From Escherichia phage JLBYU50: 64,000 nucleotides of DNA. The DNA is taken from sequence record OK272470.1; one strand, 5' to 3'. The position numbers and the translations under genes were made by a program. How positions within the stretch are numbered: position 1 is the stretch's first letter; the number at the start of each line of letters is the position of its first letter. Under the pieces are notes generated by a model that made no database searches, was not told the DNA's origin, and saw only the letters and a list, made by a program, of their open reading frames with translations. Of this stretch, positions 32,609 through 56,140 are shown piece after piece.

Positions 32609-33559
32609 TTAGTCAAGGTTTTTGGTAATACGTGTACAACCGTCAGAAGTCAAACCGTCAACTTGAGTTTCCCAAGTACCATGAATATTTCGGAACAATG
32701 TTGTTACACCTTTTGGTTCATTAATAATGATTGCCATAACAAGTTTAGGATCGATAACAGACATAATCTTTTCCTCAATACCCTCTGTAATAACATTATT
32801 GCGCACAATATTAATTGCATCTTCTTGTACAGTAAGAGCACTTACGTTCTTAAGAGTATATACCTGCTGCGTAGTGTAAATGATACGAACATAGCTTACA
32901 GAACGAGTAGGCACAGGTTTACGCGGTCGGCGAAAACGTGGTTTTGGTGAAGATTCAGTCTTACTTTCATTTTTTGAATAATACTCCTCAAACAGTTTAG
33001 TAAATGTTTTTACATCAACTACAAATCGATCTTTCCTATATGGAGAATTCTTATGTGCACCATTAATACCACTGTTTTCATCGAAGAAAGTAATGTTTTC
33101 TTCAGTTGAATACATTAGATAATGATCTGCATTTTTCCAATGTGGTTGTGGACAATGAGGATTACAAACGGAAAGCAAGTAATTAATATTTTCTTCCGTG
33201 GCCTCAGTATCCAGGAAACACGTATTATGCACAGTCAGTTGTACTTTTTCAGCCATATCTTTTTCTTTATCCTCTTTAGCAAGATATTCAGTACGAATAA
33301 TCTCCAGAAAACCTTCAGGTGTTACTTCCATAAATTTATATTCAGGATGAAGCTCCATATATTCAAATCCACAACCATCTAATTGCTGTAGAAAGTTAGG
33401 GTAGAAGAACAAGTCATTAACACTATGAATCAGATCATTGATTTCTGCTTCAGATGTGTAACCAAAACTTTTGTGAATTGCTTCGTTAAGAATATGCAGG
33501 ATACCCATCTCTTCTGCTGCTTTTTTAACTTCCAGTTTATTAGCGTAAAATGCAATCAT
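32609..33559 (-). CDS. Hypothetical protein
   Basis: 316 aa ORF. No motif recognised. Confidence 0.45.
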   Translation of the reverse strand: MIAFYANKLEVKKAAEEMGILHILNEAIHKSFGYTSEAEINDLIHSVNDLFFYPNFLQQLDGCGFEYMELHPEYKFMEVTPEGFLEIIRTEYLAKEDKEKDMAEKVQLTVHNTCFLDTEATEENINYLLSVCNPHCPQPHWKNADHYLMYSTEENITFFDENSGINGAHKNSPYRKDRFVVDVKTFTKLFEEYYSKNESKTESSPKPRFRRPRKPVPTRSVSYVRIIYTTQQVYTLKNVSALTVQEDAINIVRNNVITEGIEEKIMSVIDPKLVMAIIINEPKGVTTLFRNIHGTWETQVDGLTSDGCTRITKNLD

Positions 33560-46404: not shown

Positions 46405-46956
46405 ATGCGGATTACTGATAAGTATGTGTTCTTCTTTTCAGCAAAAGATGAATTTAGCAACTGGTATCTATCATCTTTTATTGAACCTTTAGCTCCCAAG
46501 TATAATAATTCTATTACAAGTTCTGTTGAATTTACTTGTGTGGAACAATATATGATGTGGAGAAAAGCATGTTTATTTTATGATTACAACATTGCATCTT
46601 CTATTTTAACCGGAGATCTAAGATATACAGGAGAAAAAGAACAAGCATATTATAAGCGACTAGGCAGATTAGTTAAAGATTATGATGAAGATACCTGGAC
46701 TTCTTTACGGGAGAAGATTGTCAAACGTGGTTTGTATCTTAAATACACACAAAATGAAGATCTCAAAAATAAACTTATAGCCTACGCAGATAAGGAGTTC
46801 GTAGAGGCAAGCCCTTATGATTCTATTTATGGTATCAAAATGGGGATGTGGGATCGGGACGTGGAAAATAAGGATTGTTGGAAAGGACAAAATCTTTTAG
46901 GAAAATGGCATACAGACCTTGCTGTTTATCTAAAAGCACAATCTGATATTTCCTGA
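46405..46956 (+). CDS. NADAR-family protein (YbiA-like)
   Basis: 183 aa. Blocks YVFFFSAKDEFSNWY, CVEQYMMWRKACLF, EASPYDSIYGI match NADAR/DUF1768 (F..FSNFY ... EQ.YM..KA ... EASP.D.IWGIG). Confidence 0.7.
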   Translation: MRITDKYVFFFSAKDEFSNWYLSSFIEPLAPKYNNSITSSVEFTCVEQYMMWRKACLFYDYNIASSILTGDLRYTGEKEQAYYKRLGRLVKDYDEDTWTSLREKIVKRGLYLKYTQNEDLKNKLIAYADKEFVEASPYDSIYGIKMGMWDRDVENKDCWKGQNLLGKWHTDLAVYLKAQSDIS

Positions 46957-47174
46957 TATTTTGAAAATTTTTATTTTTATAAAAAGGGGTGTGGGTTTCA
47001 TGTACGGAAATTCACCCTCTGCACAGTATATCCAGAGTAAGTAGTATTCTATACCCTGTTAATAAAGTATTTAATTTGTTTGTTGGACTATGGTATCTGA
47101 TCTTTAAAAGGCATACTATCTCTTAACTACTACTTATAACAGAACAGTAAAATCATTTTTATAAAAAGTACAAA

Positions 47175-47372
47175 ATTATTTAAAGTTTTTACAGATTTTT
47201 GGGTACAAATTTTGAAAATGAAAAGTTCAAGTTTGGTCAAAATTATTTAAAGTTTTTGTACGTATTTCTATTCAGATTTTGAAAATGAAAACTTCAATTT
47301 TTTAAAAATTCCCCAGTTTATTTAAAGTTTTTTTGCCTTTTTCCGTAGAAAAATCAAAAATGAAAAGTTCAA
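47175..47372. repeat. Three tandem ~65-bp direct repeats (iteron-like)
   Basis: Unit = ATTTAAAGTTTTT + ~20 nt + TTTGAAAATGAAAAGTTCAA, at 47175-47230, 47241-47297 and 47318-47372. Confidence 0.6.
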
Positions 47373-47395
47373 TTTCGTGTTTTTATAGGTGTGTT

Positions 47396-47455
47396 AATGA
47401 GAATCATTTTCGTTTGTAAATGAGAATCATTAGCAAATGAGAATTTTCTCATTTA
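47396..47455. promoter_or_regulatory. Three tandem Fur-box-like sites (AATGAGAATCATT)
   Basis: AATGAGAATCATT at 47396-47408 and 47419-47431, and palindromic AAATGAGAATTTTCTCATTT at 47436-47455. One mismatch from the GATAATCATT core of the enterobacterial Fur box. Confidence 0.4.
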
Positions 47456-47715
47456 GAGAATAACGCGCAGGGGTGGTGTTTGTCTCGCGCTCCCGTGTCC
47501 CCTCGCCATACAATAAGAATAGCATAACCAACAACAAAAGCAAGCGATTATTTTTATCTTTACATTTCTTTACAAATTTATTTTGGACGAGCTACCGGCG
47601 ATCAACCTTCCAACCAGTGCCCCCTGGTATGTTAGCCCCGCCTTTACGCCGTGGGGGTGGCGTTTCCTCTTCTGTATGTAAAACAGTATAAGCCCGATCC
47701 CTGGGCTTGTCAATA

Positions 47716-47982
47716 TTATTTTTTGTTTTCTTGCCAGGATAGGACACCTAACCAAAAATACATGTCGCCCCGCGCCCCTGGCGGGATCTTGCTTTCCCCG
47801 CCGCCACTGCAAGCCCATAGATAACCATTTACGAACGTATCAAAGTGATCTATCTCTTCCACCTTATGATCGCCCAGGTTGAGAACGGTTTCAACCTTTA
47901 AGCCCGTTGCGCTTGCTACCTGGTGCACCGTGCCGCCTTGCCAGCCCAATGAGTGCATGAGATGTAAAGGAGTATTTGTCAT
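47716..47982 (-). CDS. Hypothetical small protein in GC-rich segment (possible HTH regulator)
   Basis: 88 aa ORF, only candidate on the - strand in the early region. Segment GWQGGTVHQVASATGLKVETV is HTH-like. Could instead be non-coding. Confidence 0.25.
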   Translation of the reverse strand: MTNTPLHLMHSLGWQGGTVHQVASATGLKVETVLNLGDHKVEEIDHFDTFVNGYLWACSGGGESKIPPGARGDMYFWLGVLSWQENKK

Positions 47983-48093
47983 GGTATCGCCCTTTCTTTG
48001 ATGTGCGCCCTGGTTGGCGCGGTAGAAAGATAATAGCCGTTTCCTTTATAGATAGCAAGCAAAAAAGAAATGAAAAAAAGATTAAAAAAAATG

Positions 48094-48152
48094 GTTGACG
48101 TTCCTCACCTGGTAGCGTAGTATTCATCTTGTCGAGGGGGCAATAGTGCCGC
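48094..48152 (+). promoter_or_regulatory. Early promoter cassette 1 (TTGACG-17-TAGTAT) with imperfect GC hairpin
   Basis: -35 at 48094-48099, -10 at 48117-48122, imperfect palindrome GGGGCAATAGTGCCGC at about 48136-48152, then RBS and ATG 48177. Confidence 0.5.
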
Positions 48153-48176
48153 TCATAACAGAAGAGAGAAATAATC

Positions 48177-53933: not shown

Positions 53934-54116
53934 AACCATGCCCTATTTACATTTATTTTTCGGTATCTTATTGACAGGATCTTTTTTCTTCTGTATGCTT
54001 GTTTCTATTGTAAACCACGTTTTAAGACATTAAGGAAACAGCATGAAAATTATTCCCGTACAGTATAGCGTAATAAATCCAGCATATGAGGAAGGAAGGA
54101 AAACAAGCATGGCTTT

Positions 54117-54461
54117 ATGTTGTATTACTACTATAGCCATGTTATTATACATTGTGTTTTAATAGGTTTTATAGTTGTACGCTTTACAGGCTTTACAATT
54201 TTTTTGTTATGCTTTAAAATATATCTTGAAAACGGCAAAGGCCGCAAACAAAAGGGTAAAACTTATGCGCTGAATCATGCGTTTATCGGCAAGGTTGAAT
54301 ATAGAGAAATGATCGACGAGGAAACAGGGCAAGATTTTAGCGATTATGTTTATATTCGTTCAGAAACATTAGCCGAACGTTTGATCGAGAAAATGAAAGC
54401 AAAAAATAAAATTAATTTAGCTCATTGGATTGATATAACAAACGATTCTGCTTATCAGTAA
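54117..54461 (+). CDS. Hypothetical protein with N-terminal hydrophobic segment (start uncertain)
   Basis: 114 aa ORF ending just before terminator 54478-54504. Overlaps an alternative-frame 39-aa ORF (54043-54162) that has a better RBS. Confidence 0.35.
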   Translation: MLYYYYSHVIIHCVLIGFIVVRFTGFTIFLLCFKIYLENGKGRKQKGKTYALNHAFIGKVEYREMIDEETGQDFSDYVYIRSETLAERLIEKMKAKNKINLAHWIDITNDSAYQ

Positions 54462-54477
54462 ATAACATTTCATACCA

Positions 54478-54504
54478 GGGCGCACAAAGCGCCCTTTCTT
54501 TTTA
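54478..54504 (+). terminator. Rho-independent terminator
   Basis: AGGGCGC-ACAAA-GCGCCCT followed by TTCTTTTT. Confidence 0.6.
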
Positions 54505-54707
54505 CCTAAATAAAGATGATAGCTTTTACCTATCAAAAACGTTCACCGAAAAAAGTGAATAGATCGCGGTATCGAGCTAATCAAGGAGCAGATGAACAAC
54601 CATACCATGAAGATCATAAGGCGCTTACAGCGTGTTTTAGACCGCTTATTTTTAATTTCTTCATGCAACTATCTGGCAAAAACAGCCTTTTTCTCATCTT
54701 TCCTCTT

Positions 54708-54780
54708 AAATGATAATCATTCTTATTTATAGCTGATTATTTATGCAATAAACTGCATAATGCAATAATGATAATCATTC
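54708..54780. promoter_or_regulatory. Two Fur-box-like sites
   Basis: AAATGATAATCATTC at 54708-54722 and AATAATGATAATCATTC at 54764-54780. Each contains the 13-nt core AATGATAATCATT of the GATAATGATAATCATTATC consensus. Confidence 0.45.
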
Positions 54781-55154
54781 TTAACTTATGACCATCTAAC
54801 CTATAAAATAATAAGTTATCTAACTAAATTAAAGCTAACTATTTCACCTTTATTTATAACTTACTGTTACTATCTCATTGATAACCTTATATTAAACAAC
54901 AATAACTAATATAAATCATTATTAAGCTAACTATAATCTATCTAACCTTTAAAACTATAACTATAATCTATCTAATTGTTGCACAAAGTAACTATTAAAT
55001 TGTTAGTAACATTACTAAATAATTAATATCCTATTTATTTATGATCTAATCTTTACCTTCCTATTTATCACCTAACTAATCATTTCATACAATAATTATA
55101 ACAAGAAATATAATTCGCAAGCGTATCATTAGCAGCCTATGCCGGACACATAGG

Positions 55155-55303
55155 CGGCTAATAATAACGCAACTACACACCCCACATAATAACCATCACC
55201 GATAGTTATTATTTGTGCTTATGTAGCTTGCAACAATTGCAAGCGCAACAATATACATGGTATATTGTATCCCTTACATTGTTGCGGTGCGTTATTATTA
55301 GCT
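55155..55303. repeat. Nested inverted repeats in AT-rich non-coding region
   Basis: GCTAATAATAACGC (about 55156-55169) pairs with GCGTTATTATTAGC (about 55285-55298). Inner CGCAACAAT...ATTGTTGCG and CAATATAC-ATG-GTATATTG palindromes. Confidence 0.5.
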
Positions 55304-55602
55304 AATGTTTGGAACATTGGCTATAATATAAGCTATCCAATAATAAACATAGTGGATAATGACACTGATGATCATAATGCGCCACCTTCCAGGGGGCGCT
55401 ATGTGAACACAAAAAATCTTTCTTGTCAAGAAAAATATTACCATTATTGCGCAAAATTATTTATATATGAATAGATGGTTTTTCATACTATTATTGTTAT
55501 TTGTCGGGCATAACTATCCCTATTTGTTGAGCCTACTTTCTTAAAAGCGCAATAAATCAGAATTATCTTGATTTTTAGTGAGTTTTATAGTATAGAAAAT
55601 AT

Positions 55603-55621
55603 GCAAATGATAATCATTATC
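55603..55621. promoter_or_regulatory. Near-consensus Fur box
   Basis: GCAAATGATAATCATTATC matches GATAATGATAATCATTATC at 17 of 19 positions. Confidence 0.5.
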
Positions 55622-55788
55622 AGCTATCTTCCACGGGTGGCACTATTTCACGCCAGATCATTTCATTTGGCAAGGTGTATATAGATGTTTAGACTTGCCA
55701 AGCCATTGATTTACTTAGAATTTATCTGTTTTGTTGTGAGTAGTACCTTTCTTGCTCAGAAAATAATCAAAAGTCTTATAAGTCATTG

Positions 55789-55820
55789 AATGATAATGCA
55801 AATGATAATTATTCTCATTG
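55789..55820. promoter_or_regulatory. Overlapping Fur-box-like repeats
   Basis: GAATGATAATGCAAATGATAATTATTCTCATTG: two AATGATAAT half-sites followed by TCTCATT, the partner of the 47.4 kb boxes. Confidence 0.4.
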
Positions 55821-56111
55821 ATATTTGAGGGGGACGGTCGGCAGAAATCGGGGGCGCTGAAAATCGCGTTAAGCACCTCTCGCAAGCGAGCAGTATTTTG
55901 CGGCAAGTTATTGATATTATTGACTTTACGCTTATGAAAAGGGGGCGTGTCGAAATAAATCGGGTATACCGGAAAATTTTTGTGGCATAGATATTTATTT
56001 GTCTATATTATGTACAAAGGGGTGTGTTAAAAATAATAGGTATATATAGAATAATTGATAGGGAAATCCTATACTAAATCCTTCATTAATGATGTTCCTA
56101 TGTTGCTGTTC

Positions 56112-56140
56112 TTGTAACAGATGAAAAGATGCTATATGAT
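56112..56140 (+). promoter_or_regulatory. Candidate promoter (TTGTAA-17-TATGAT)
   Basis: -35 56112-56117, -10 56135-56140, upstream of RBS aaggag and ATG 56178. Confidence 0.35.

Follow-up and report, generated by a model that had tools for sequence, protein, structure and literature searches.

The 64,000-nucleotide stretch of Escherichia phage JLBYU50 analysed here (OK272470.1; hereafter the window) carries, in a gene-free gap between two + strand genes (54462 to 56120/56178) and in a second non-coding region, clusters of sites that equal or exceed proven operators of the iron-responsive Escherichia coli regulator Fur in matrix score. The sites are enriched well above chance and conserved across relatives, two of the arrays lie inside the direct terminal repeat (DTR) of the packaged genome, and no Fur homologue was found in the phage clade. 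The reading that we favour, with a probability of about 0.5, is that these arrays are selectively maintained for host Fur, which would damp weak promoters overlapped by the boxes as well as read-through transcription. The 2.1 kb around the finding share 93-96% identity with some 40 Escherichia phages of the genus Justusliebigvirus, i.e. phi92-like myoviruses of the subfamily Stephanstirmvirinae with genomes of ~146-150 kb that are all virulent-type, in line with the first-pass annotation, which had described a virulent-type phage. The gap measures ~1.66-1.72 kb, rather than the 1.4 kb given there, and has a GC content of 32% overall and 21% in its core.

Fur sites were scored with a symmetrised 19-bp matrix built from 12 DNase-footprinted E. 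coli K-12 sites without phage input. The coordinates of these sites were taken from Table 3 of Chen 2007 (PMC2189734) and converted to the current genome version, and the footprint sequences were checked and found to contain the expected Fur boxes. Footprinted sites scored 8.8-22.1 bits in leave-one-out runs, held-out true operators reached 18.3 (ryhB), 13.3 (fhuA) and 10.2 bits (exbB), and a scan of 21 kb of E. coli DNA yielded known Fur operators only at or above 16 bits. The six top-scoring sites of the window, located at 55603 (24.5 bits), 47393 (21.9), 54764 (21.1), 55798 (20.1), 47416 (19.6) and 54706 (16.7), all fell within two non-coding regions, and the best of them outscored every training site. 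Chance expectation was determined with 2000 dinucleotide-preserving shuffles of positions 54462-56120 at a threshold of at least 16 bits. The region contained four such sites compared with a shuffle mean of 0.076, and a count of four was reached in 0 of the 2000 shuffles; the 21%-GC core alone likewise passed the test. The 19-bp consensus GATAATGATAATCATTATC had four matches with no more than three mismatches in the window (0.03 expected), and the 13-bp palindrome AATGATAATCATT was present in three exact copies and one copy with a single mismatch. The first-pass annotation had reported four Fur-box-like sites in the gap, one of them with a 17/19 match, and had named scores no better than expected for DNA of 25-30% GC as the outcome speaking against them. 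All four were recovered where it had placed them, and the recount for 55603-55621 again gave two mismatches to the consensus. Because their number lay far above the shuffled controls, the sites are confirmed as real, and they are stronger than first described.

Within the gap, the first member of a conserved pair (box 1, 54706-54730) consists of two overlapping sites 6 bp apart (16.7 and 14.6 bits), the former of which (54706-54724) reads TTAAATGATAATCATTCTT, and the second member (box 2, 54764-54782) reads AATAATGATAATCATTCTT. The highest-scoring site, box A (55603-55621), has the sequence GCAAATGATAATCATTATC and is followed by the box B array (55786-55825), in which three overlapping sites of 14.2, 20.1 and 13.6 bits are again spaced 6 bp apart (GATAAT GCAAAT GATAAT T ATTCTC ATTGAT). 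Two weaker Fur-like sites were located at 55355-55373 (13.8 bits) and 55430-55448 (15.6 bits), and the former belongs with box A and box B to a repeat family, D2. The 6-bp offsets at 55792/55798/55804, 54706/54712 and 47393/47399 correspond to the structure of Fur clusters, as real Fur operators form clusters of three or more GATAAT-like hexamers or of overlapping sites 6 bp apart (PMC2189734). The conserved flanks of box B can be read as additional Fur hexamers, giving the pattern forward-forward-forward-x-reverse-reverse-reverse. Isolated Fur-like sites were also seen elsewhere in the window, at 33118 (16.2 bits) and 57098 (15.7 bits). In the complete 148-kb genome of Justusliebigvirus alia, sites of at least 19 bits were limited to the two non-coding regions and one other place; the isolated site of 21.4 bits at 117174 of the J. 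alia record OZ035770 appears to be coding by coordinate offset (phi92 ~24.9 kb).

The second cluster, NCR1, occupies 47393-47455 and comprises a tandem array (21.9 and 19.6 bits) and the palindrome AAATGAGAATTTTCTCATTT. It sits in the non-coding region 46957-48176, downstream of 67-bp tandem repeats. The first-pass annotation, correct on the four sites of the gap, had missed both this cluster and the location of sites in the terminal repeat. Four to five NCR1 boxes were counted in alia, phi92 and cardinal and three to four in ukendt, where they persist in a stretch that megablast no longer aligns. The array adjoins a highly conserved non-coding block on the + strand (47456-47710), which ends at a bidirectional terminator (47688-47710), lacks an open reading frame and folds as RNA no better than shuffled sequences (z = 0); a Fur-regulated small RNA in this position, considered as a candidate, was therefore unsupported. 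The 67-bp repeats upstream of the array cover 47171-47390, and the length of the region differs among close relatives (1273, ~1530, 1835 and 1975 bp with the same 1220-bp query). In phage cardinal, the conserved block following the array contains an additional insertion of ~0.9 kb with minus-strand open reading frames. An 88-codon gene (47716-47982, - strand; phi92 gp224) lies within the apparently non-coding DNA and converges on the bidirectional terminator.

For comparison across relatives, the region equivalent to the gap was collected from 13 lineages whose anchor protein, the gp30.8-like protein encoded upstream of the gap, was 54-95% identical. Relatives were taken from GenBank phages and Logan/ENA contigs, IMG/VR having given few true relatives. 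The set included Phapecoctavirus ukendt, the Klebsiella phages phi1_175008 and FBKp34, the Vequintavirinae KB57 and 4MG, and seven metagenomic contigs found via homologues of the gp30.8-like protein. Together, the gaps following the anchor gene contained 25 sites of at least 16 bits compared with 0.41 expected from shuffles, and at least one strong site was present in 12 of the 13 lineages, Klebsiella phages included. The sites followed a recurring layout, with a pair spaced 58-61 bp apart and, 0.7-1 kb further on, two arrays separated by 180-195 bp, and these spacings were retained although the flanking sequence diverges and aligns poorly. The pair was found in phi1_175008, KB57 and lineages L049, L053 and L054, and box A was present in ukendt, WPEC2 and L053. 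The box B block TAAGTyATTGAATG...CATTGATATTTGGG was kept in six lineages, in which the segment after box B (CATTGATATTTGGG) was invariant. In an unbiased count, the commonest 8-mers shared by the 13 regions were the Fur-box fragments TAATGATT, ATTCTCAT, AATGATAA and ATGATAAT, with the repeat boundary TCGCGTTA also ranking among the top words. Among five genomes of the same genus, variable columns made up 3.9% of the boxes, as opposed to 11.0% of the remaining gap (Fisher p = 0.02). Since L055, whose anchor protein is 54% identical, and L020, a more distant relative, had no boxes, the trait is not universal.

The annotated 343-bp DTR of phi92 (NC_023693) aligned over 343/343 bp to positions 55530-55871 (+ strand) at 98.5% identity. 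The gap therefore holds the physical ends of the packaged genome, present as one collapsed copy in the window, and is more than the promoter zone ahead of the next gene block for which it had initially been taken. Stephanstirmvirinae genomes are described as terminating in direct terminal repeats (2025 paper, PMC12695924), the conserved right DTR boundary CGCGTTA is precisely where the WPEC2 record stops, and both boundaries have been kept in ukendt, WPEC2 and phi1_175008. Box A lies inside the repeat, 73 nt from its left boundary, as does the box B array, ~50 nt from the right boundary; the boxes at 54706 and 54764 are located in the unique right end, ~800 bp upstream of the DTR. Both boundaries (55526-55545 and 55865-55885) share the motif GTTR|AGC, which is longer in ukendt (GTTR|AGCACYT) and may represent a terminase cutting motif. 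The only canonical sigma-70-type promoter of the gap, P_DTR (55667-55695, + strand; TTGGCA-17-TAGACT, with TTGACA in phi92), lies between box A, whose centre is ~90 nt upstream of the transcription start, and box B, which covers +84 to +123. In the left DTR copy, this early promoter reads towards the early genes that come first at the left end. L053, L054 and phi1_175008 have retained P_DTR, while ukendt and WPEC2 carry a 21-bp deletion that disrupts it.

A tblastn search with E. coli Fur against 50,697 phage records returned 34 matches, none of them in Stephanstirmvirinae or Vequintavirinae. A phage-encoded Fur was therefore rejected, and host Fur is the likely natural ligand of the boxes. 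The boxes drift among phages of E. coli, Klebsiella and other enterobacteria yet remain within the host matrix, a behaviour that would fit a conserved host protein better than a co-evolving phage protein. Fur-Fe2+ would very likely occupy the boxes in iron-replete cells. Among the motifs of other host factors, those of DnaA, LexA, CRP and ArgR were absent, and Fis sites and GATC were unenriched. The IHF core WATCAANNNNTTR had two matches, 55699-55711 and 55904-55916 (- strand), compared with 0.27 expected (p ~0.03). Both are situated in blocks conserved across genera, one right after P_DTR and the other just outside the DTR.

Sigma-70-type promoters were mapped with a simple matrix. In the blocks of early genes (48-54 kb and 57-64 kb), a canonical TTGACA-N16/17-TAnnnT promoter was found about once per gene, more than 15 of them with a perfect -35 element; the gap was almost devoid of such promoters. 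Three boxes share the left flank ATGCAA, followed 18 nt further on by a -10-like hexamer (TATCTT or GATATT) and then by a run of G residues, and these oriented flanks always read along with the flanking genes. The boxes overlap weak candidate promoters, ATGCAA-18-TATCTT and ATGCAA-18-GATATT, of which the -10-like element GATATT is conserved. Between boxes 1 and 2, the palindrome TTATGCA-N6-TGCATAA was found at 54740-54760, and a TATGCA-N6-TGCATA element between or beside boxes was also present in phi1_175008, ukendt and 4MG. Directly after box 2 follows an AT-rich, G-depleted tract (54783-55110, + strand; 4% G and 17% C). C exceeded G in 6/6 lineages checked, and the sequence itself is not conserved. 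Words of the CTAAC type recur in the tract, which also holds two identical 18-nt copies of a direct repeat (54928 and 54958) and could be a Rho-loading or unwinding region. The adjoining segment (55110-55330) contains about six hairpins or palindromes, with perfect 15-nt arms at 55157-55171 and 55288-55302. Its predicted folding energy was -72.7 kcal/mol compared with -48.5 kcal/mol for shuffles (z = -5.6), and the hairpin cluster is located 200-400 bp ahead of the left DTR boundary.

The arrays occupy three fixed stations, namely the 58-bp pair at the start of the G-poor tract, the two DTR arrays around P_DTR and the tandem array of NCR1. In the favoured reading, Fur-Fe2+ would fill these arrays in iron-replete cells and spread across the adjoining AT-rich DNA, so that transcription starting at or crossing them would be damped. 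The affected units would include the weak promoters ATGCAA-18-TATCTT and ATGCAA-18-GATATT as well as the transcripts of P_DTR, whose path would lead through box B near +100. The units would be derepressed once iron scarcity inactivates Fur or once replication, with its hundreds of phage genome copies, titrates it. Some of the early and terminal transcription programme would thereby follow the iron status of the host and the copy number of the genome. We infer Fur occupancy and all later steps of this scheme from the sequence. The first-pass annotation had proposed iron control of phage transcription or titration of Fur. Site quality, enrichment, conservation and the lack of a phage Fur speak for this proposal, and both of its readings are viable; it is supported in part, as the boxes fail to overlap the canonical promoters.

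Several observations count against the favoured reading. No box overlapped a canonical phage promoter, no strong promoter was predicted at any box, and the candidate promoters found under the boxes are weak in their -35 elements, which also differ between lineages. An operator-on-promoter model was rejected for the canonical promoters, as these do not coincide with the boxes, and simple promoter occlusion by Fur therefore does not follow from the sequence. We know of no documented mode by which Fur represses from -90 or +100. The boxes persist in ukendt and WPEC2 though P_DTR is disrupted there, and phi1_175008 is devoid of box A. According to the host fields of the records, these phages were isolated and grown on standard E. 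coli laboratory strains, presumably in iron-replete media, where a Fur-repressed unit would probably be dispensable. Finally, ~83% of E. coli Fur clusters overlap the -35 or -10 element of a sigma-70 promoter (PMC2189734); for the boxes described here, such overlap was seen with weak candidates only. A broader version of the favoured reading, possible though tentative, is that the arrays at the genome ends and at the two other stations form a titratable switch wired into the whole clade (Stephanstirmvirinae and at least part of Vequintavirinae). The arrays of a single incoming genome would be occupied in iron-replete cells and freed by iron starvation or rising copy number. Their release would time phage transcripts or end-processing, and the host regulon for iron and ribonucleotide reductase would incidentally be derepressed, to the benefit of the phage.

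Among the alternatives, the arrays might serve as a sponge, in which replicating DNA soaks up Fur, so that the Fur regulon of the host would be derepressed. This regulon includes iron uptake, the iron sparing mediated by RyhB and the Mn-dependent reductase NrdHIEF, and its derepression would leave more iron and deoxynucleoside triphosphates for the iron-dependent enzymes of the phage. Such enzymes exist, as phi92 encodes the class Ia ribonucleotide reductase NrdA and NrdB, a class that requires iron. About 6 strong sites and a further 3-4 of moderate strength are present per genome, and those in the repeat count twice in packaged DNA, so that 100 copies of the genome would supply roughly 1000 sites; by comparison, the model of Chen 2007 lists 412 sites above 10 bits across the entire E. 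coli genome. In the Fur titration assay (FURTA), a single Fur box carried on a multicopy plasmid derepresses fhuF::lacZ (PMC2189734). The number of NCR1 boxes ranges from 2 to 5 among close relatives and boxes were gained or lost between lineages, a variation that fits selection on site number. However, titration could start only after replication and would need new host gene expression late in the lytic cycle, which presumes that host transcription survives infection. About ten sites per genome are also modest for a dedicated sponge, and the sites stand at three fixed stations with conserved spacing and oriented flanks instead of being scattered. We consider a sponge rather unlikely. Somewhat less probable still is an architectural role, in which Fur bound near the DTR boundaries and in the AT-rich right end would aid a DNA transaction rather than transcription. 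Candidate processes are terminase cutting or packaging, origin function and the exclusion of H-NS from very AT-rich DNA; IHF acts at lambda cosB in packaging, and Fur keeps H-NS off E. coli ftnA. The positions of boxes A and B 73 nt and ~50 nt within the DTR boundaries agree with such a role, as do the joint conservation of the box B block and the right boundary CGCGTTA|AGCAC in six lineages, the lack of canonical promoters in the gap apart from P_DTR, the two IHF core matches in conserved blocks (55699 and 55904), and the presence of the palindrome cluster (z = -5.6) and the G-poor tract between the box pair and the DTR. Yet the NCR1 array lies 8 kb from the genome ends, DnaA boxes are absent, a process depending on Fur-Fe2+ would tie packaging to iron supply, and we are aware of no precedent for Fur in packaging or replication.

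It is improbable that the motif only resembles or mimics a Fur box and is in fact recognised by a protein that the phage itself encodes, for instance its small terminase subunit or an early regulator. The repeated unit is longer than the Fur core (families D1 and D2, 29-37 nt), several putative small regulators are annotated among the early genes of phi92, and repeats near genome ends are common for terminase and regulator sites. All 19 positions nevertheless match the Fur box, one site outscores every footprinted host site, the boxes drift across enterobacterial phages within the Fur matrix, as expected for a conserved host protein, and the phage clade has no Fur-family protein; even alongside a phage protein, binding of host Fur to these sites would be expected. 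That low-complexity, AT-rich DNA produced the sites by chance, as the GC content of 32% in the region and 21% in its core might suggest, has a negligible probability. None of the 2000 composition-matched shuffles reached the observed count, 25 sites were found where 0.41 were expected in 13 lineages, and the boxes are the most conserved words of the region; a chance origin was thus refuted by the shuffles of the region and by the 13-lineage count.

The gap is preceded by the gp30.8-like gene (54117-54461, + strand), a homologue of phi92 gp248, and the next gene begins at 56121/56179 (+ strand). The upstream block of early genes ends in an intrinsic terminator (54477-54505, + strand), whose GC-rich stem of 7 bp precedes a T tract, and a terminator is annotated at the equivalent place in phage Paula. 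In the gp30.8-like gene, here taken as 54040-54461, only the C-terminal 68 codons match relatives; the 5' half is unrelated sequence encoding a hydrophobic, junk-like N-terminus, which looks like a recombination breakpoint or a truncated gene rather than a frameshift. Right after the terminator, positions 54512-54661 are near-invariant in five genomes (0-2 variable columns per 50 nt) and overlap small open reading frames (54516-54713 and 54592-54732), with an AAGGAG motif shortly upstream of the second; this segment may be a small gene or another element. Pfam searches with nine small flanking proteins gave a NADAR domain at 46405-46956 as the sole match. Rfam returned nothing at gathering thresholds for the whole window, with chance-level matches only in the two non-coding regions, and no tRNAs were detected in the 64 kb. 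Four GenBank records labelled 'Campylobacter phage' (MG065639, MG065645, MG065656 and MG065689; A150, A145, C3 and A110a) share 94.6% identity with the phage region, and their host labels are probably wrong or the samples contaminated.

Bacterial chromosomes are the textbook location of Fur operators, which are also familiar from a few cargo genes of prophages. To our knowledge, no virulent phage has so far been described with such operators as a conserved part of its backbone, or with any inside its terminal repeat. The searchable full-text literature yielded no report of Fur boxes in these or other virulent phages, a mention in the phi92 genome paper being possible, and no transcriptome of a phi92-like phage. 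The element type is thus known, and what is new is its context, namely a virulent phage backbone, a terminal repeat and clade-wide conservation. The conserved sites point to a previously unreported link between host iron status and phage development. If Fur binds them, these phages would sense or manipulate the iron status of their hosts. Because iron is scarce at infection sites and plentiful in laboratory media, the timing, yield and behaviour of phi92-like phages, which are isolated widely for the treatment of infections with encapsulated E. coli, Klebsiella and Salmonella, could then differ between the bench and the patient. They would also provide a test case for host repressors as counters of viral genome copies and for viral DNA as a transcription-factor sponge.

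The phage sites have the 19-bp consensus in common with the E. coli operators of entC, fhuF, fepA-fes, iucA and ryhB, and the entC operator carries the core AATGATAATCATT, identical to that of the phage. In both groups, GATAAT-like hexamers are arrayed such that neighbouring sites overlap at 6-bp offsets, and the phage sites score comparable to or above the E. coli operators. Unlike the latter, they are found in a virulent genome and off strong promoters, with two arrays inside the DTR. The fepA-fes footprint includes a TTGCAA hexamer and the following spacer inside the Fur box, which resembles the layout of the ATGCAA box flank, whereas the -35 elements of the phage are poor and unconserved. 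With IHF at lambda cosB, the phage arrangement shares a host-protein binding array tens of bp from the terminase cut sites; it differs in the host protein and in having direct terminal repeats instead of cohesive ends, and a link between Fur and packaging would be by analogy. In FURTA, free Fur is expected to be depleted by numerous high-affinity boxes on DNA that replicates (PMC2189734), as proposed here for the phage. FURTA is, however, a laboratory plasmid artefact, unlike a naturally selected viral sponge for Fur, of which no description was found in the searchable literature. At the stx1 promoter of Shiga-toxin prophages, host Fur likewise acts on phage-borne DNA. There, a single operator controls the promoter of one cargo gene in a temperate phage and serves the lysogen, whereas the sites described here number 6-10, occupy three conserved stations and belong to the backbone and termini of a virulent phage.

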